From positions 1 through 5,063 of IMG/VR virus record IMGVR_UViG_3300020041_000182: a DNA stretch of 5,063 nucleotides; one strand, written 5' to 3'. Position numbers and translations under genes: made by a program. Positions 1-5,063 of the stretch are shown here, piece after piece. The notes beneath the pieces were generated by a model that worked only from the letters and a program-made list of their open reading frames with translations, searched no databases and was not told the origin of the DNA. Position 1 is the first letter of the stretch. The number at the start of each line of letters is the position of its first letter. The stretch comes from a virus.

Positions 1-121
1 ACCCTACACCGCTTTTTGACTGGTATTACTCTGATTCCGAGTTCCTTTCACGATATGTCCGTGATTCTTGGTTGTCTTTCGGCTCGGATGTTATGCTTCC
101 TGATGACTTTGAAAATGCCGA
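1..121. repeat. Terminal direct repeat, left copy; identical to 4943..5063 (circular assembly overlap)
   Basis: Base-by-base comparison shows 121/121 identity between the two window ends. The repeat lies inside a coding frame that stays open across the junction. Confidence 0.95.
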
Positions 122-515
122 GTTCGTCACCGATATTTCTGTGCGGAATCTGCACCCCGTAGAGGATATTGCATCCCCTTACAGCGAAGTCGTTTTCGCA
201 AACGTCTCTGCGCGTAAGGATTGCGCTCCCTATAGCTTCGATAAATCTCTTGAATATGTTGCTTCTCATTATGGCGCTTACGTTCCCTATATTCTCCGTG
301 ATGAGCGTCTTATCGCTATTTGCCGCGATGCTGCTCGTGAAAAGTTCGGTTTGGATATTGGATTCTCTGTCTATTTCCATGACCAGGCGCTTGATGAATT
401 CGAAGAGCTTCCCGACGATTCTTACTCCCCGTGGTCAGAGGATGCAGAGTTTGAAGAAATAGATATTCTTAAAGGAAAGGAGTCTCGAACATATGCGGAT
501 TTTGGTAGTCGGTAA
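1..515 (+). CDS. Rep, C-terminal part (same gene as 4315..5063, wrapped); ends in an acidic tail
   Basis: Codon phase starting at position 3 is continuous with 4315..4942, and the stop is TAA at 513..515. The translation ...WLSFGSDVMLPDDFENAE... matches the end of the window. The C-terminal roughly 30 residues are D/E-rich (381..470). Confidence 0.8.
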   Translation, partial: PTPLFDWYYSDSEFLSRYVRDSWLSFGSDVMLPDDFENAEFVTDISVRNLHPVEDIASPYSEVVFANVSARKDCAPYSFDKSLEYVASHYGAYVPYILRDERLIAICRDAAREKFGLDIGFSVYFHDQALDEFEELPDDSYSPWSEDAEFEEIDILKGKESRTYADFGSR

Positions 516-735
516 ATCCCGCCGCGCTGGTAAGTCCAAATCTGGCAAAGACTATGATTTTACTACCATTATGGCCGAGTTTGACATGCGTGCGAACGAT
601 GATAACGCGGGCGTTTCGGTTGATAGAATTAACGTTTCTGCCACTATGATGCCTTATGCGCTGGTAGAAGTTGGTGCTACATACGATCTCGATTTCGATC
701 GTAACGGGTACCTCCTTGGTATCGAAAAACTGTAA
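493..735 (+). CDS. Gene-V-like ssDNA-binding protein (80 aa)
   Basis: ATG lies 10 nt after the SD AAGGAG (477..482) and overlaps the Rep 3' end. The size and position directly after Rep match inovirus gV. The segment AGKSKSGKDYDF resembles the DNA-binding wing of M13 gVp (SGVSRQGKPYSL) and Pf3 SSB (GTSAKGNPYTF). The segment VGATYDLDF...GYLLGI resembles PGLYTVHLSSF...GSLMI. Confidence 0.6.
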   Translation: MRILVVGKSRRAGKSKSGKDYDFTTIMAEFDMRANDDNAGVSVDRINVSATMMPYALVEVGATYDLDFDRNGYLLGIEKL

Positions 736-762
736 CAACACCATATCTCTTTCAATCTCTCT

Positions 763-778
763 GGCCGCTTCTGCGGCC
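763..778 (+). promoter_or_regulatory. 6-bp GC stem-loop GGCCGC-TTCT-GCGGCC, 3 nt upstream of the tRNA 5' end
   Basis: The inverted repeat is perfect and read directly. No T-tract follows, so it is not a classical terminator. It could be a processing or stability element. Confidence 0.4.
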
Positions 779-781
779 TAT

Positions 782-856
782 GGCGGGGTGGTGCAATTGG
801 TAGCACGCCACACTCTGAATGTGGAACTGCTGGTTCGAGTCCAGACCCCGCAACCA
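782..856 (+). tRNA. tRNA-Gln (anticodon CUG at 815..817), 75 nt with encoded CCA
   Basis: Hand-folded cloverleaf. The acceptor is GGCGGGG/CCCCGCA (6 WC pairs plus a G1.A72 mismatch) and U8 is present. The D stem is GTGC/GCAC with loop AATTGGTA (A14, G18G19, A21). The anticodon stem is CCACA/TGTGG with loop CTCTGAA (U33, CUG, A37). There is a 4-nt variable loop. The T stem is GCTGG/CCAGA (4 WC pairs plus G.A) with the canonical loop TTCGAGT. The discriminator is A, followed by CCA at 854..856. Confidence 0.75.
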
Positions 857-914
857 CTGTCGTGACTGACCTCCGACAGGAAAAACGCTTTTGCCGTGAT
901 AGGGGGTGTGCGAA

Positions 915-2090
915 TTGAAGATAAAGCAGCGGTGCTTGTTGAATCGGTTCGCCGCCCTTGTTGCGGCTCTGATGCTTTGTGCGTCTCTGTGTGTGCCTTG
1001 TTTCGCGTCTAATAATGCCAGCTCGAAAAAGTGGGTTGTTGCTGCTGAATCTCAGATGTCTAATGAACAGGGCACAATGTCTCGGTATCTTAAGTTGACT
1101 CCCTATGTCGGCGGTAGTATTTATGCTGCTACTTTTGGCACTACTGGTTCTCCTTCTACTTCTGTTCCTAACACTTCGGATTCTTCGACTACTTCTGATT
1201 TTTATTGGGTGAATCCTTATAATTACCCTGATTGGTGGCGTTCTTCTATTCCCCTTGGTAATTATAGTTATGTTCAGTTCGATAAGGTTCGTGTTATTTC
1301 TTATTATGTTGATGGTCTTTCCTCCAGTAATCCTTCCTATGTTTCTTTCGTCCCTCTTAACACTGCTTATTCCCTCGATTTTTCAGCCGATTATAGAGTT
1401 GCTTTAGACAAAAACCAAGATTTTTCGCTTTCTGCTGCTTCTGCTTTTTATCCCATTTCTGCTACTTTTTATTATACTCGCAATGGTTCTTCGTCGTCTG
1501 TTAGCACTGCGGCGGTTAGCGCGTCTATCTTTTCTGTTCCCCTTAGTTCTTCGTCTCCTTCTGTTTTCAATTTGTCTCTCGGTACTCAGGTTGTCCCTAC
1601 TACTGTTCCTTTTGCTTCTTCTTCTGTCCCTCTTCCGTTTTCCGGGATTTATTGGGGGACTATTCCTGCTTTTGCGAACATTTCTTCTGATTCTCTTGTG
1701 TGGGCTGTTCTTCCTCGTAACTATGTGTATGACCCTCATTCTTTTGACCTGCGTGTTTCTGCAGAAATTTCTTTTTGGGTCGATGCTAATAAGCTTCCTG
1801 CTGGTCTTCAAGTTGGCGACGAATTCCCCGCGGATACCGATGCTTTTGACAAATTGCGCGATGAGTTGTTAGACCAGTTCCCGGAAGCTGCTGATAATAT
1901 TGAGAACGGAAAAGCTACTATTCAGGGTTGGAATGACACTGAAACGGTTGACACTGATGTTGCATCGACTTCTATTTCGGCTCTTAACGCCTTGTTTCAG
2001 AATCTCGGCGGGTTCCTCTTTATAGTTTCTCTCATGGTCTTCGGCGCCGTTGTGCTCCGTATGTTGATTCGAAAGGCGGTTGACGGATGA
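915..2090 (+). CDS. pIII-like minor coat / adsorption protein: signal peptide, Ser/Thr-rich linkers, C-terminal membrane anchor
   Basis: The ORF is open from GTG 906. TTG 915 is preferred because it sits 8 nt after the SD AGGGGG (901..906). The N terminus MKIKQRCLLNRFAALVAALMLCASLCVPCFA looks like a signal peptide. There are S/T-rich tracts, and the C-terminal TM is GGFLFIVSLMVFGAVVLRMLIRK. This architecture matches filamentous-phage pIII; I recognised no sequence homology. Confidence 0.6.
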   Translation: MKIKQRCLLNRFAALVAALMLCASLCVPCFASNNASSKKWVVAAESQMSNEQGTMSRYLKLTPYVGGSIYAATFGTTGSPSTSVPNTSDSSTTSDFYWVNPYNYPDWWRSSIPLGNYSYVQFDKVRVISYYVDGLSSSNPSYVSFVPLNTAYSLDFSADYRVALDKNQDFSLSAASAFYPISATFYYTRNGSSSSVSTAAVSASIFSVPLSSSSPSVFNLSLGTQVVPTTVPFASSSVPLPFSGIYWGTIPAFANISSDSLVWAVLPRNYVYDPHSFDLRVSAEISFWVDANKLPAGLQVGDEFPADTDAFDKLRDELLDQFPEAADNIENGKATIQGWNDTETVDTDVASTSISALNALFQNLGGFLFIVSLMVFGAVVLRMLIRKAVDG

Positions 2091-2218
2091 CTTTTCTTGA
2101 CTTCTTCAAACAGGTCTTCGGCCTGCTTGGTTCCGGTGGCGCTCTCGTTATCGCCGTTGTCGTTTTCCTCGTTGCTCTCGGTATCTATAAGTTCGTAAAG
2201 GATTGGTTGCCATGGTAG
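2087..2218 (+). CDS. 43-aa single-TM coat-like protein (candidate major or minor coat)
   Basis: ATG overlaps the upstream stop (ATGA), and the SD AAAGG lies 10 nt upstream. The product is MTFLDFFKQVFGLLGSGGALVIAVVVFLVALGIYKFVKDWLPW. It has an acidic N terminus, a TM helix and a basic C terminus (GIYKFVK), similar to fd IGIKLFKKF and Pf1 GLIYSMLRK. Confidence 0.55.
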   Translation: MTFLDFFKQVFGLLGSGGALVIAVVVFLVALGIYKFVKDWLPW

Positions 2219-2379
2219 ACTTTGTTTCGACGCTTGGCGTTGTTACCTCATTTGTTGCGAACGTGCTGAATCTCTCTTTCTTCGGCTTCGGTACCTTTGG
2301 CAACTTCGTTCTTGTCTGTCTCCTGCTTTCGCTTGTTGGCTTTGTTCTCCGTGGTCTTTGGGATGGGGGTGAAAAATAA
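2212..2379 (+). CDS. 55-aa hydrophobic membrane protein (minor coat-like)
   Basis: ATG overlaps the upstream TAG (ATGGTAG), and the SD AAAGGA lies 9 nt upstream. The product is MVDFVSTLGVVTSFVANVLNLSFFGFGTFGNFVLVCLLLSLVGFVLRGLWDGGEK. The stop overlaps the next start (TAATG). Confidence 0.5.
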   Translation: MVDFVSTLGVVTSFVANVLNLSFFGFGTFGNFVLVCLLLSLVGFVLRGLWDGGEK

Positions 2380-3008
2380 TGGAAGTCCCTACTATTATTA
2401 AAACTTGGGTTGATTCTGACGGCGTCACCGTCTATACCGTGCAGTATAAAGATGGTAGCACTTGCGATATGACTGTCCAGCAGTATGACTATCTCAAGGC
2501 ATCCGCGCAGGCTGTCAAAGACCTCGATGCTCAGGCGGCCGCGGGTGAAGGGCAGACGCAGTCTGCAGATCACACGCAGGACGCCGCCGCAGGAGAACCG
2601 GCTCGGAATATCACCGAAAGTCCTGACCTCCGTGTTGGCTATGTGCCACAGGAAGAAGAATTACCTTTCGAGGGGAGTTTGACCGCTTATGATGACGCCG
2701 CAGCAGATACTCCTGCTTTGTATGCTAATCTCCCTGACGTCTCAAATAGTTTCACTGCTATTATGGATTGGTTCGGAGATACGTTTTTCATCGAACGCAC
2801 TGAGACGGTTCATAAGTCCGGCTATACGTCTGAAAGGTATTCCTATAATAGTTCGTCTCAACTCATTCAGCTCCCCTATGAGGAAGATTCCACTACCACT
2901 TCTCAGGTTCTCAACCCGCAAGCTGTCTTTTCTGCTCTTCTTGTTGTCCTTGTCTTTGTCACTACTGTTACATGGATTAAAAACGCGATTTGGGGGCGCA
3001 TGAGCTGA
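2379..3008 (+). CDS. 209-aa acidic protein with a C-terminal TM anchor and no signal peptide; function unknown
   Basis: The ORF is in the supplied track, and the SD GGGGG lies 9 nt upstream. The N-terminal roughly 50 aa look beta-rich, followed by an Ala/Gln/Asp linker. The C-terminal TM is AVFSALLVVLVFVTTVTWIKNAIWGR. Confidence 0.6.
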   Translation: MEVPTIIKTWVDSDGVTVYTVQYKDGSTCDMTVQQYDYLKASAQAVKDLDAQAAAGEGQTQSADHTQDAAAGEPARNITESPDLRVGYVPQEEELPFEGSLTAYDDAAADTPALYANLPDVSNSFTAIMDWFGDTFFIERTETVHKSGYTSERYSYNSSSQLIQLPYEEDSTTTSQVLNPQAVFSALLVVLVFVTTVTWIKNAIWGRMS

Positions 3009-3121
3009 TGACTATTTTACCTTTGCAGTATTGCTTCGGCATCTTCTCTGTCCCCGAGATTGGCTACTTCATTGTTTTTGCTGCTGTCTTCTCTATGTTG
3101 GTTCTCCTGCTCCGTCCGTGA
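3008..3121 (+). CDS. 37-aa hydrophobic protein (pVII/pIX-like minor coat candidate)
   Basis: ATG overlaps the upstream TGA (TGATG), and the SD GGGGG lies 11 nt upstream. The product is MTILPLQYCFGIFSVPEIGYFIVFAAVFSMLVLLLRP. Confidence 0.45.
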   Translation: MTILPLQYCFGIFSVPEIGYFIVFAAVFSMLVLLLRP

Positions 3122-3220
3122 CAGGTGTCCCATAAAAAATTTATGAAAGGATGATGACTTCAGACTGCTGCCTCCATTATTGCCACGCTGCTTTCTCAGG
3201 TCGGCGAGTTCTTCACATCC

Positions 3221-3349
3221 ATGATTACTTGGATGGGTCAGCTTCTGGACTTCTATGAGTCCCAGCCGATTCTCCTTGTCTTCGTGATCCTCGCTATCGC
3301 GGGCATTGTGCTCCGTGTTCTGCGCCGCTGGATTCCCGGTCGCTCCTAA
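3221..3349 (+). CDS. Coat-like single-TM protein. The minimal ORF from the first ATG is 42 aa, but the same frame is open and protein-like from 3158. Candidate major coat protein
   Basis: The product is MITWMGQLLDFYESQPILLVFVILAIAGIVLRVLRRWIPGRS, with an acidic N terminus, a TM helix and four Arg in the C-terminal tail (Pf3-coat-like layout). A strong terminator hairpin follows directly. There is no SD before ATG 3221. The only SD-like element (AAAGGA, 3146..3151) lies upstream of the extended frame. Confidence 0.5.
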   Translation: MITWMGQLLDFYESQPILLVFVILAIAGIVLRVLRRWIPGRS

Positions 3350-3356
3350 ACACTGA

Positions 3357-3404
3357 GAGAAAACGCCGCCGACCATTTTATGGTCGGCGCCGTTTTCTCG
3401 TTTT
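3357..3404 (+). terminator. Long hairpin plus T-tract: intrinsic terminator after the coat-like gene
   Basis: GAGAAAACGCCGCCGACCA (3357..3375) pairs with TGGTCGGCGCCGTTTTCTC (3381..3399): 19 bp with one C.C mismatch and a 5-nt loop. GTTTT follows. Confidence 0.6.
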
Positions 3405-4046
3405 ATGAAAGGATTATATGCTATGCTTTATGGTCTTCTTGTCTTTCTCATTTGCTGGCTTTTTGTATATATCGATAACTATTGCAAAAACCCCTACAAA
3501 TTGGAAGCTGTTGTTGGTTCAAAAGGCTCTGGCAAATCTCTGTATATGTCTCGCGTGGCTGATCGCTGGCTTCGTTCTAATAAGGGGCTTATCTATTCTA
3601 ATATGGGTATCGGTTATGAGTTAGAGGACGAATACTGGAAACAGACCTTTCTTCCTGATTCTCTCATCCTCATTGATGAGATCGGCGTGCTCCACTCTAA
3701 CCGTGACTTCAAATCTATGCCCCGTGAAGCTGTCGAGTTCTTCAAGATGCAGCGTAAATATCACCTGACGATTATTGTATCGTCTCAGACCATGGACTTT
3801 GACAAAAAGATTCGTGACCTCTGCGACCGCATCTACCTTTGTAACCGTATTGGCTGGTTTTGCCGTCTCACTCCCTATCGCTCCTGCATTGCTATGGAAC
3901 ATCGCCCCGAGGGCGGCCAAGAGCTGGTCAACACGGTGCGCAAAGCGGGTCGGGCAAGGTGGTATACCATCCCCAAGTCCGTGAAGCAGGTAAGTGCTTT
4001 AGAATACGATACAGAGCAGGTTATCAGCAAGACCCCTTCGAAGTAA
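3405..4046 (+). CDS. Zot/pI-like P-loop assembly (morphogenesis) ATPase, 213 aa, with an N-terminal TM segment
   Basis: Walker A is GSKGSGKS (3516..3539) and Walker B is LILIDE (3663..3680). The spacing and size fit the Zot family (PF05707-type) as recalled. The N-terminal LYAMLYGLLVFLICWLFVYI is hydrophobic. The start may be the in-frame ATG at 3423, which lies 9 nt after the SD AAAGGA (3408..3413), rather than 3405. Confidence 0.75.
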   Translation: MKGLYAMLYGLLVFLICWLFVYIDNYCKNPYKLEAVVGSKGSGKSLYMSRVADRWLRSNKGLIYSNMGIGYELEDEYWKQTFLPDSLILIDEIGVLHSNRDFKSMPREAVEFFKMQRKYHLTIIVSSQTMDFDKKIRDLCDRIYLCNRIGWFCRLTPYRSCIAMEHRPEGGQELVNTVRKAGRARWYTIPKSVKQVSALEYDTEQVISKTPSK

Positions 4047-4082
4047 AAAAAAACCCTCGTAGATCTACGAGGGTTTTTTTTT
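4045..4082. terminator. Perfect 38-nt palindrome A9-CCCTCGTAGATCTACGAGGG-T9; bidirectional intrinsic terminator
   Basis: Read directly. An 8-bp GC-rich stem (4054..4061 with 4066..4073) has a GATC loop and is flanked by nine A and nine T. It begins at the last bases of the Zot-like stop codon. Confidence 0.7.
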
Positions 4083-4141
4083 GCCGGAGCAGCTGCCACG
4101 TTTAGTCACGCGATAGCGTCTCCACCGCGTCCCCCGTCCCC

Positions 4142-4238
4142 GCAAGAGCAAAGCTCTTGCCCTTCTAAAACAGACTGGCAGAGGCTCCCGTTGCGCTGGC
4201 GATCGCCAGCCTGTCGGGGTGCCTGTAATACCCCGACA
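4142..4238 (+). promoter_or_regulatory. Cluster of three inverted repeats in the main non-coding region; candidate replication origin or packaging region
   Basis: The first is GCAAGAGC-AAA-GCTCTTGC (4142..4160). The second is the 16-nt palindrome GCTGGCGATCGCCAGC (4195..4210). The third is TGTCGGGGT-GCCTGTAAT-ACCCCGACA (4212..4238, 9-bp stem, 9-nt loop). The cluster lies just upstream of the rep promoter. Confidence 0.4.
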
Positions 4239-4254
4239 CAATAGAAAAAAAGCC

Positions 4255-4283
4255 TTGACAATAGCCCCGCTCCGTGGTAGCAT
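4255..4283 (+). promoter_or_regulatory. Sigma70-type promoter for rep: -35 TTGACA, 17-nt spacer, extended -10 TGgTAGCAT
   Basis: The consensus -35 is at 4255..4260 and TG at 4275..4276. The -10 TAGCAT is at 4278..4283, with an A-rich tract (4242..4250) upstream. The rep SD and ATG lie about 20-30 nt downstream. Confidence 0.55.
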
Positions 4284-4314
4284 AGCATTAGAGATTGAAA
4301 GGGGAGTATGTGCT

Positions 4315-5063
4315 ATGTCAACTTACGTTATTCGTTTGGACTATGCAACATTTGCGTTTCTGCGCGATTCTGTCAACCTTGGAAAAATTCAGCAGTGCCT
4401 TTCCGGTGGTGCTGACCTTGGATTCCGTCAGTTCGGCAACTCGATAAACTCCCCTCTTCAATCCCCCTATGGATTGTATTATAAGCCTGAATCCGGTTCA
4501 ACCGAGAATCCGCATATTTTACAGGTTTCCGGCGTTGGCTGTGAGCATTTCCGCGAAACTCTGCCTTGTTTAGCCAAGGTCATGCGCGACGCTGGAGAAC
4601 AGGCTCATTTTCGCCGTATTGACCTTTGTTTCGATGTGATTATGAAACGCTCCGCATGGCGCTCTTATCTTGCTAAGTGTTTCGCTTATTCCATGGAAAA
4701 TCAACGTCAGCGTAAGAAGTTTCTGTTGCAAGGTTCCGGCGAGGCTATGACCGTTTATATTGGCTCTCGTAATAGTCCTCGATATTTTCGTGTTTATAAC
4801 AAGTCTTTACAGTGTCCCTCTTATGAGTTCGTTTCTCCGGACGGCACTATTTCTCCTGTTGCGGATGACGAATGCGTCATTCGTTATGAGATTGAATCCT
4901 CTTGGAAAAGTCGCTGGTTGCGTGGTCAAAAGGCTTATTCAGACCCTACACCGCTTTTTGACTGGTATTACTCTGATTCCGAGTTCCTTTCACGATATGT
5001 CCGTGATTCTTGGTTGTCTTTCGGCTCGGATGTTATGCTTCCTGATGACTTTGAAAATGCCGA
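4315..5063 (+). CDS. Rolling-circle replication initiation protein (Rep_trans-like), N-terminal part; continues at 1..515 on the circle for about 380 aa in total
   Basis: ATG at 4315 lies 8 nt downstream of the SD AAAGGGGAG (4298..4306). The frame is open to the window end. Three motifs fit the Rep_trans (PF02486-type) initiators as I remember them: RIDLCFD (4615..4635), YIGSRNSPRYFRVYNK (4756..4803), and a downstream IRYEIE. Confidence 0.8.
   Translation, partial: MSTYVIRLDYATFAFLRDSVNLGKIQQCLSGGADLGFRQFGNSINSPLQSPYGLYYKPESGSTENPHILQVSGVGCEHFRETLPCLAKVMRDAGEQAHFRRIDLCFDVIMKRSAWRSYLAKCFAYSMENQRQRKKFLLQGSGEAMTVYIGSRNSPRYFRVYNKSLQCPSYEFVSPDGTISPVADDECVIRYEIESSWKSRWLRGQKAYSDPTPLFDWYYSDSEFLSRYVRDSWLSFGSDVMLPDDFENA
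4943..5063. repeat. Terminal direct repeat, right copy; identical to 1..121
   Basis: Same comparison as the left copy. The window ends mid-codon within the Rep ORF. Confidence 0.95.

Follow-up and report, generated by a model that had tools for sequence, protein, structure and literature searches.

To our knowledge, all natural initiator transfer RNAs (tRNAs) carry the anticodon CAU and serve AUG-type codons, initiation at unrelated codons having been obtained only by engineering. The closest described systems are such constructs: mutants of the E. coli initiator tRNAfMet with the anticodon CUA or GAC are charged by GlnRS or ValRS, formylated, and initiate at UAG or GUC in E. coli (PMC2268962). 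As regards viruses, an earlier paper stated that single-stranded DNA (ssDNA) phages carry no tRNA (PMC4032129), and an ARAGORN survey of 13,200 viral genomes predicted one tRNA in each of three genomes named 'Uncultured phage WW-nAnB' (Morgado & Vicente 2019; PMC6409571). These predictions are an entry in the supplement of that survey, the sole remark being that tRNAs occur in some ssDNA viruses (PMC6409571), and no tRNA is mentioned in the main text of the genome paper (Cantalupo et al. 2011; PMC3187576). Here, we analysed a window of 5,063 nucleotides (nt), positions 1 to 5,063 of the IMG/VR virus record IMGVR_UViG_3300020041_000182, which judged from its sequence is an inovirus (Tubulavirales) of the same WW-nAnB, or "non-A-non-B hepatitis", clade and which carries a 75-nt tRNA gene with the anticodon CUG and an encoded CCA end at positions 782..856 of the + strand. 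We propose, with a probability that we put at roughly 0.65, that this gene encodes a private, non-AUG initiator tRNA serving the putative coat gene of the phage. The bare prediction of the tRNA is already published, and three of the relatives used here (L016, L017 and L018) reproduce the published ARAGORN coordinates of JN402401, KJ003981 and KJ003982; the analysis of conservation, structure, acceptor end, coat gene, covariation and function is new. A preliminary description of the window had taken a tRNA to be undescribed in inoviruses, a view that has to give way to the 2019 listing of three genomes and that holds as far as any analysis of the gene is concerned. The literature searched on this question contained neither a natural non-AUG initiator tRNA nor an analysed function of an inovirus tRNA.

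ARAGORN found a single tRNA in the window, tRNA-Gln(CTG), at exactly 782-856 on the + strand, and the Rfam model RF00005 aligned end to end with positions 782-853 with a score of 51.7 bits (gathering score 29) and an E value of 2.6e-9, the only non-standard pairs being 1:72 and 49:65 (G1.A72 and G49.A65). The cloverleaf, with stems of 7, 4, 5 and 5 bp, contains U8, A14, G18G19, U33, A37, a TTCGAGT T-loop and the encoded CCA, and the complete tRNA-Gln(CUG) gene announced in the preliminary description was thus recovered with every feature listed there. The anticodon loop CTCTGAA occupies positions 813..819 (+ strand), with U33 at 814, the anticodon at 815-817, A37 at 818 and A38 at 819. As also noted beforehand, the gene has the same orientation as the protein genes of this minimal inovirus. 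It separates the small gene of 80 amino acids (aa) that follows rep (493-735, + strand) from an adsorption-protein-like gene of 394 aa (906-2090, + strand). About 45 independent assemblies have the tRNA in this same slot, and it is present in every relative whose contig spans the slot; it is therefore not an assembly artefact, and the chimeric join that had been considered can be set aside.

To describe the constraint on the fold, we used 38 homologous tRNA copies, of which 33 are distinct. Among the distinct tRNAs, 91.5% of the cells were paired, compared to 33-53% in slid controls. Changes on both sides were found in 11 of the 21 pairs, covariation extends to all five pairs of the anticodon stem and four of the T stem, and none of 500 shuffles reached the observed covariation. 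The folding energy of the single sequence is not unusually stable (z = -1.15), so that energy alone proves nothing. In a 28-genome alignment, conservation amounted to 0.885 in the tRNA versus 0.71-0.78 in its flanks and 0.48-0.78 in the rep and adsorption genes. Taken together, these comparisons indicate that the tRNA is real, conserved and structurally constrained by selection on its fold. The CUG anticodon, A37 and G10 are invariant across the main clade, that is, the clade of the window, and the G49.A65 mismatch is found in 23 of the 33 distinct tRNAs. The window tRNA itself has an extra D-loop T at 797-798 (AATTGG), compared to AAYGG in all other clade members. The preliminary description had further raised a shifted pairing register of the acceptor stem; the minimum-energy fold does pick this register, but relatives with tRNA sequence type B (such as L012 and L015) cannot form it and the canonical register therefore stands.

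The determinants of methionyl-tRNA formyltransferase are an unpaired 1-72 position, A73, G2:C71, C3:G70 and G4:C69 (PMC9976931; PMC5389676), and the 1x72 mismatch separates initiators from elongators (PMC6265465). When the window tRNA was compared to initiator tRNAs, the full determinant set was found, its acceptor end comprising an unpaired G1.A72, G2:C71, C3:G70, G4:C69 and A73. The 1:72 mismatch, which had been singled out as unusual, is never repaired: all 33 distinct tRNAs have G.A or C.A, position 1 being mostly G, and C in six genomes. Acceptor pairs 2-6, A72, A73 and the CCA are invariant, while the anticodon and T stems drift. In the members with C1, the ten 5' and eleven 3' nt equal those of the E. 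coli initiator metZ (CGCGGGGTGG...CCCCGCAACCA). The anticodon CAU of initiators is absent, being CUG in the window and AGU, UGU or CGU in sister clades.

When the same molecule was compared to tRNA-Gln, the D-arm and the T-arm proved to be of the tRNA-Gln type. The C34 U35 G36 anticodon, A37 and G10 agree with the bacterial tRNA-Gln identity set (PMC9976931); A73, C3:G70 and A38 were found in place of the E. coli tRNA-Gln identity set G73, G3:C70 and U38 (PMC9976931). The U1:A72 first pair of bacterial tRNA-Gln, which is read by GlnRS, GluRS2 and GatCAB, is replaced by G.A or C.A in 33 of 33 distinct tRNAs; the literature on GatCAB and first-pair recognition contained no data on a G.A mismatch. 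A scan of the genome collection with a pattern made from the D-arm and the anticodon gave at least 120 loci for comparison. Among the matches listed, 119 of 120 are tRNA-Gln of cells belonging to many phyla; the most similar of them reaches an identity of 0.79 with the phage tRNA, and no donor tRNA could be named from them. None of these 119 tRNA-Gln with the same D-arm has G.A or C.A at 1:72; the 62 cellular tRNA-Gln with an encoded CCA among the matches listed consist of 60 with U1:A72 or A1:U72 and 2 with U1.U72. The idea of a eukaryote-like D-arm was rejected: the same D-arm is common in bacterial tRNA-Gln.

The proposed partner of the tRNA is a gene of 62 codons plus stop (QTAASIIATLLSQVGEFFTSMITWMGQLLDFYESQPILLVFVILAIAGIVLRVLRRWIPGRS) at 3161..3349 of the + strand, delimited by its coding signature and by homology with the sister clade. 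Its product, which is acidic in its N-terminal part, hydrophobic in its core and basic at the C-terminus, is putatively the major coat protein according to its size, composition and position, and the gene is followed on its 3' side by a strong intrinsic terminator with 20-nt arms (3357..3399, + strand). Neither the 62-aa protein nor its sister-clade homologues could be assigned to a usable family by searches of Pfam and PHROG. Each of the other eight genes matches a PHROG family built from close relatives and the coat gene matches none, which is consistent with gene callers missing a gene that lacks a canonical start.

The coat gene is preceded by a Shine-Dalgarno sequence GAAAGG at 3145..3150 (+ strand), identified as repeat D16 and in the 28-genome alignment, and the ribosome-binding site of the Zot-like gene is a near-identical copy with the same spacing (GAAAGG at 3407-3412, ATG at 3423-3425). 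No AUG, GUG or UUG is present at the coat ribosome-binding site. Instead, two in-frame stops, TGA TGA (3152..3157, + strand), stand directly before CTT CAG and close the coat frame on the 5' side, and the CAG at 3161..3163 (+ strand), 10 nt after GAAAGG and complementary to the tRNA anticodon, is the proposed start codon. This CAG is invariant in every main-clade genome scored, as the second or third codon after the in-frame TGA. The ATGATG at 3151-3156, which directly adjoins the Shine-Dalgarno sequence, lies in a different frame, and the open reading frame (ORF) starting from it is not conserved. The first in-frame ATG of the coat ORF is found at 3221 (ATG-ORF 3221-3349). The segment between CAG and this ATG, 54, 57 or 60 nt long, was tested for coding in 46 genomes. 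Stops occurred in the CAG frame in 0 of 46 genomes, versus 44 and 39 of 46 in the other frames; codon positions 1, 2 and 3 of the CAG frame had 7, 4 and 15 variable sites; and the ratio of synonymous to non-synonymous codon differences was 4066:1564 in the CAG frame, versus 277:4800 and 100:4725 in the others. A start at the internal ATG at 3221 was rejected, as the 18-20 codons upstream of it have a clear coding signature. These comparisons indicate that the coat reading frame starts at CAG, where there is no canonical start. In the whole genome, two CAG lie 4-11 nt after a Shine-Dalgarno-like pentamer, and only that at 3161 lacks a canonical in-frame start upstream. The loop 813-819 is complementary over 6 nt to positions 3159-3164 of the mRNA (TTCAGA); this hexamer is present three times on the + strand and its occurrence alone therefore means nothing.

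A further link between the tRNA and the coat gene is provided by a sister clade with Rep homologues 41-44% identical and genomes of 5.5-6 kb, which has a homologous tRNA in the same slot. The sister-clade tRNA keeps the D-arm and the acceptor G2-G6, scores 31-32 bits, and differs in its anticodon. In the main clade (41 genomes scored), the anticodon CUG goes with the coat start GAAAGG(A/G)TGATGACTT-CAG. The anticodon AGU goes with GAAAGGTGGTATGCTCT-ACT, or with AGGAGAGGAGGATGCTGT-ACT in L198 (9 scored including L198, in addition to L197 read by eye), UGU with (G/T)AAAGGTGGTGTTCTC-ACA in five genomes, and CGU with GAAAGGAGTTGATTTA-ACG in two. In an automatic tally, the codon at the coat start complements the anticodon of the tRNA of the same genome in 57 of 57 genomes, and four further genomes checked by eye agree. 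Each of CAG, ACU and ACA has two mismatches to AUG, so that the host tRNAfMet should not read them. In one member of the sister clades (L203), a stop lies six codons upstream of ACG with no ATG, GTG or TTG in between. It should be noted that the AGU and UGU classes are interspersed among Rep genes that are 93-97% identical, with tRNA and start codon always matching; recombination has therefore not broken the match. The complementarity extends beyond the codon: nt 37 is complementary to mRNA position -1 in 57 of 57 genomes (A:U, replaced by G:C in the genomes with UGU and by U:A in those with CGU), and nt 38 usually pairs with position -2. A pyrimidine at position 37 is abnormal for elongator tRNAs. 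Pairing of nt 37 with mRNA -1 was shown experimentally for the initiator tRNA in the P site (PMC10018350), and the comparative data suggest that the phage tRNA probably reads the first coat codon in the P site with the same pairing.

Two members of the sister clade, L171 (773-970 and 983-1147) and L176 (4128-4313 and 4326-4490), contain two tandem coat paralogues. In the sister clade, only the first paralogue has the tRNA-matched non-AUG codon; the second has a normal Shine-Dalgarno sequence and ATG. When aligned with the first paralogue, the second covers the part that precedes the internal Met, and the internal ATG is therefore ruled out as a start. No tRNA was found in the outgroup inoviruses L265-L269 (Zot 37-41% identical), and their tandem coat-like genes start with GGAGG and ATG; the presence of the tRNA thus coincides with that of the odd start codon. 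Three of these outgroups (L265, L268 and L269) have two coat-like paralogues, both with ATG. A scan of viral contigs with the sister-clade Rep gave two partial loci only. In L018, which corresponds to JN402401, the tRNA (1577-1650) lacks one base in the D-loop, and its anticodon loop has 8 nt; the anticodon is given as ACTG by ARAGORN, and the tRNA was called Ser(act) in the 2019 survey. This oddity is probably a sequencing error of the 454-based assembly, because the coat start of L018 is still CAG.

We therefore lean towards seeing in these phages a natural orthogonal initiation system, in which a formylatable tRNA and the coat start form a lock and key that would have been rebuilt at least three times (CAG, ACU, ACA, ACG). 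In the proposed mechanism, the tRNA would be transcribed within a long rep-to-coat message, excised by the host RNase P and 3' processing enzymes, and charged, presumably with Gln via U35-G36, by an anticodon-reading enzyme. As its acceptor end mimics that of the bacterial initiator, the charged tRNA would be formylated and kept from EF-Tu and elongation. It would then bind the CAG at 3161-3163 in the P site, at start distance from the coat Shine-Dalgarno sequence, through a pairing of 4-6 nt in which nt 37 and 38 join the anticodon by pairing with mRNA -1 and -2, and coat synthesis would thus depend on a phage-made tRNA. Expression and processing of the tRNA are predicted from sequence, and its charging, formylation, avoidance of elongation and use in the P site are extrapolated from sequence and from the engineered initiators. 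The system fits neither a canonical initiator nor an elongator tRNA-Gln, and by analogy would work like the engineered anticodon-mutant initiators. One may speculate that the benefit is a coat synthesis conditional on, or proportional to, phage transcription and processing, or insulated from host control. The preliminary description had left room for a special tRNA-like structure; a role other than elongation is indeed closest to the evidence, while decoding of the coat start had not been foreseen.

Several observations weigh against an initiator function. The three G:C pairs of the anticodon stem (3GC) at 29:41, 30:40 and 31:39, an initiator hallmark needed to pass IF3 (PMC5389676), are absent: the window tRNA has A29:U41, C30:G40 and A31:U39, and no member has three G:C, the other combinations being AU/GC/GC, GC/CG/GC, GC/CG/UU and GC/GC/CA. 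Pair 11:24 is invariantly U:A, as in elongators, and not purine:pyrimidine. Some AGU-class tRNAs have a U1:A72 pair, and the sister-clade tRNAs, which score only 31-32 bits, have a bulged T stem. On the mRNA side, an in-frame ATG is located two codons upstream of the special codon in L171, and L176 and L189 have a TTG or GTG in the coat frame, located within or ahead of the Shine-Dalgarno sequence; canonical initiation is therefore possible in these genomes. The very high expression required of a coat protein sits uneasily with an imperfect initiator, and the coat identity itself is drawn from size, composition and position. Initiators that have U1:A72, or that lack one or more of the three G:C pairs, do occur in nature (PMC5389676; PMC6265465), and the extended pairing of nt 37 and 38 may compensate for the absent 3GC motif.

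The gene could be an ordinary elongator tRNA-Gln(CUG) that tops up the CAG pool or replaces a host tRNA-Gln destroyed by a defence nuclease, a possibility that we regard as unlikely. Such a function would agree with the canonical cloverleaf, the encoded CCA, the invariance of CUG and A37 in the main clade and a D-arm and body belonging to a widespread bacterial tRNA-Gln class, and an anti-defence role of tRNAs has been published for other phages (PMC10264068). The codon count that had suggested supplementation was confirmed in Rep (8 CAG and 4 CAA) and amounts to 36 CAG and 9 CAA in the nine ORFs, so that CAG makes up 36 of the 45 Gln codons in the window, where GAG and AAG make up 42% and 50% of their pairs. 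When phages were compared with phages, however, the CAG share of the carriers of the CUG tRNA (0.47-0.81, mean about 0.63) was no higher than that of the sister phages with Thr anticodons (0.58-0.68), and the usage of ACU and ACA did not track the AGU and UGU classes; codon supplementation is thus not supported. An elongator function would further leave several facts unexplained: position 1:72, whose lack of pairing is a mark of initiators as opposed to elongators (PMC6265465), is never paired while the rest of the acceptor stem is frozen; the CGU class has U37, a base foreign to elongators; nt 37 co-varies with mRNA -1; the coat gene has no canonical start; and anticodon and start codon match in four versions.

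It is rather improbable that the tRNA is a mere tRNA-shaped processing signal, a 'punctuation' between the replication and structural messages in which decoding would be irrelevant. The surroundings of the gene do suit such a function. A GC hairpin (GGCCGC-TTCT-GCGGCC, 763..778, + strand) ends 3 nt before the 5' end of the tRNA and has no U tract, and most relatives have a different hairpin (GGAGAGCGG-loop-CCGCTCTC) in this upstream slot, so that a GC hairpin without a U tract always stands 3-4 nt upstream, in at least two unrelated versions. Base -1 of the tRNA is always T (U in the transcript). A second hairpin (CTGTCG-11 nt-CGACAG, 857..879, + strand) directly follows the CCA and is replaced by an ACGGA..TCCGT hairpin in relatives. 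The upstream hairpin may protect the 3' end of the upstream message after RNase P cleavage, and the downstream one may serve the 3' processing of the tRNA or form the 5' terminus of the message that follows. A promoter search of the window found no promoter-like site adjoining the tRNA, which is therefore presumably excised from the rep-to-coat polycistronic transcript, inside which it lies. The tRNA also marks the border between a variable half of the genome, devoted to replication and adsorption, and a conserved morphogenesis half, with flanks reshuffled around it. However, a processing signal needs neither an anticodon invariant in the clade nor its match, in four versions, to a codon 2.3 kb away, nor the covariation of nt 37 with mRNA -1. 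Processing is probably a real consequence of the position of the gene, and is compatible with the private-initiator reading.

The flanks of the tRNA (736-781 and 857-905) were also compared among L001-L043, in which at least three unrelated upstream sequences occur (the GGCCGC hairpin, the GGAGAGCGG hairpin and an AT-rich or terminator-like sequence) and two downstream flank types are combined with tRNA sequence types A and B in different genomes. Such reshuffled flanks argue for recombination at or near the tRNA ends. A scan for the upstream hairpin followed by the tRNA start retrieved two known loci only, because most relatives use a different hairpin.

Another way to account for the coat gene would be a start at the out-of-frame ATGATG (3151-3156) followed by a +1 frameshift at U-CAG, aided by the phage tRNA-Gln. 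The conservation of ATGATGACTTCAG in the main clade and the resemblance of the first codons, MMTS, to the in-frame MITS of L171 speak for this frameshift, which we nevertheless hold to be very improbable: the spacing between the Shine-Dalgarno core and these ATGs is just 0-3 nt, no ATG occurs at this place in the UGU and CGU classes, and the pairing of nt 37 with mRNA -1 would be impossible with an occupied P site (as deduced from PMC10018350). Moreover, the special codon is displaced from the neighbouring ATG or GTG by 0, 1 or 2 nt (mod 3) depending on the class, and therefore no single frameshift fits.

Finally, the attP-like site, host tRNA-Gln integration target or host fragment captured by imprecise excision that the preliminary description had envisaged is hardly credible: inoviruses with tyrosine recombinases do integrate at tRNA 3' ends (PMC8530359) and rep pieces of the sister clade do occur in bacterial chromosomes, but no integrase or recombinase domain was found among the window genes, the contigs that carry Rep homologues of the window clade measure about 5 kb, apart from an 8.9-kb concatemer as the longest, the Rep-bearing contigs of this clade and of the 64-69% tier are all about genome-sized, the whole tRNA is present and not just the 3' half expected of a plain att core, its identity is at most 79% to the 119 cellular tRNA-Gln among the matches listed, the chromosomal remnants hold rep sequence and not the tRNA, and the compensatory evolution, together with an island of conservation at 0.885 between flanks at 0.71-0.78, points to selection on the RNA fold.

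The 8.9-kb contig is a metagenome contig (L172, 1-8937) made of a 1.8-fold head-to-tail repeat of a genome of about 4.9 kb, with all genes and the tRNA doubled; it is an assembly concatemer or a replication intermediate, and not an integrated form. The chromosomal pieces are about 190 nt long, comprise 30 nt upstream of rep and its first ~50 codons from a sister phage at 86-89% nt identity, and were found in many contigs of gut bacteria (58-62% GC, up to 287 kb), with purB on one side and an oadB-like gene on the other. Their loci include L235 (5968-6142, with an ORF at 5998-6153), L209-L258, L199, L200 and L261-L264 (4686-5510), and some of these contigs have an ORF of 274 aa, or Rep residues 1-273. 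No other phage gene was found at the purB/oadB-like locus of these contigs. The piece could be a domesticated or decayed fragment and, as such, a clue to the host.

Three contigs share the 5' half of the tRNA and appear unrelated to the present system. Two are fragments of tailed phages, L184 (47-121, - strand) and L186 (2672-2744), whose tRNAs share the 5' half AGCGGGATGGTGTAA and have an unpaired A1.A72; one has the anticodon CAU in a loop resembling that of initiators, and the other the anticodon CAG together with an ACCA end. Judged from these features, they might be further initiator-like phage tRNAs; no CTG start close to a Shine-Dalgarno sequence was found in L184. The third, L185, is a contig of 12.8 kb with an array of three tRNAs (Pro, Met-CAU and Leu).

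With respect to the genome as a whole, the window represents a circle of 4,942 nt with terminal redundancy, positions 1-121 being identical to 4943-5063. Its GC content is 47%, the + strand is T-rich, and every credible gene lies on the + strand. The traits of an inovirus are present: a small circle, a single coding strand, an initiator of the Rep_trans family, a Zot-like ATPase and small hydrophobic proteins predicted to be virion proteins. The rep gene (380 aa, + strand), assigned from Pfam/PHROG matches and the ORFs, runs from 4315 to 5063 and across the circle junction to 515, and is preceded by the best sigma-70-like promoter of the window (TTGACA-17-TAGCAT with a TG, 4255..4283, + strand). 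Several genes for small hydrophobic proteins (+ strand) follow the adsorption-protein-like gene on its 3' side, and a gene of 209 aa is located at 2379-3008 (+ strand). The Zot-like assembly ATPase, an inovirus hallmark, is encoded at 3423..4046 (+ strand) and followed by a terminator at 4045-4082. The noncoding region between this terminator and the rep promoter (4083-4254) contains several GC-rich palindromes, such as those at 4140-4170 and 4197-4211, and is a candidate replication origin or packaging signal. Megablast retrieved four GenBank genomes from pigs labelled 'Inovirus sp.' (MT135292, MT135293, MT135296 and MT135305) at 81-87% nt identity, and IMG/VR contained 37 relatives with a Zot 91-97% identical. 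The clade is abundant in human gut, pig gut and sewage.

If the private-initiator reading is true, a tRNA in a minimal ssDNA phage, a kind of phage commonly held to carry none (PMC4032129), would for the first time have a functional explanation. This reading would also reveal a new translation device between virus and host, with a new form of viral control or insulation of structural-protein synthesis, and would mean that any codon can serve for efficient initiation on bacterial ribosomes, provided that a formylated tRNA matching it is supplied. The four versions would offer ready orthogonal pairs of initiator and start codon for synthetic biology, and a natural test bed for the roles of 3GC, formylation and quadruplet pairing in start-site selection. 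It would follow as well that ORF finders systematically miss genes with private start codons.

Several known systems share part of what is proposed here. The suppressor tRNAs of stop-codon-recoded phages make the structural or late genes of these phages readable by re-reading stops in elongation; the logic of dependence is the same, the special codon being here the start codon. The tRNAs of large double-stranded DNA (dsDNA) phages (PMC4032129, PMC10264068) are likewise virus-encoded cloverleaves that are apparently functional, but they are elongators, usually clustered, in genomes of tens to hundreds of kb, whereas the present tRNA is single, in a 4.9-kb ssDNA genome, with an initiator-type acceptor end, a link to a start site and no link to codon usage. 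The tRNA listed for WW-nAnB (PMC6409571) comes from the same clade and is the same gene as that of the window, in a listing that gives the prediction without functional analysis. Bacterial tRNAfMet resembles the phage tRNA in the unpaired 1x72, G2:C71, C3:G70, G4:C69, A73 and the possible pairing between nt 37 and mRNA -1, and the phage tRNA differs from it in having other anticodons, no 3GC, U11:A24 and a D-arm and T-arm of the tRNA-Gln type. The engineered E. coli tRNAfMet mutants of Schulman, RajBhandary and co-workers (summarised in PMC2268962) come closest: as in the phage tRNA, formylation determinants are combined with a non-CAU anticodon, and, as at the phage coat CAG, the matching non-AUG codon stands at start distance from a Shine-Dalgarno sequence. 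Those mutants are laboratory constructs with a full initiator body, three G:C pairs and A11:U24, whereas the phage tRNA is natural and virus-encoded, has a Gln-like body and exists in four versions of anticodon and codon.

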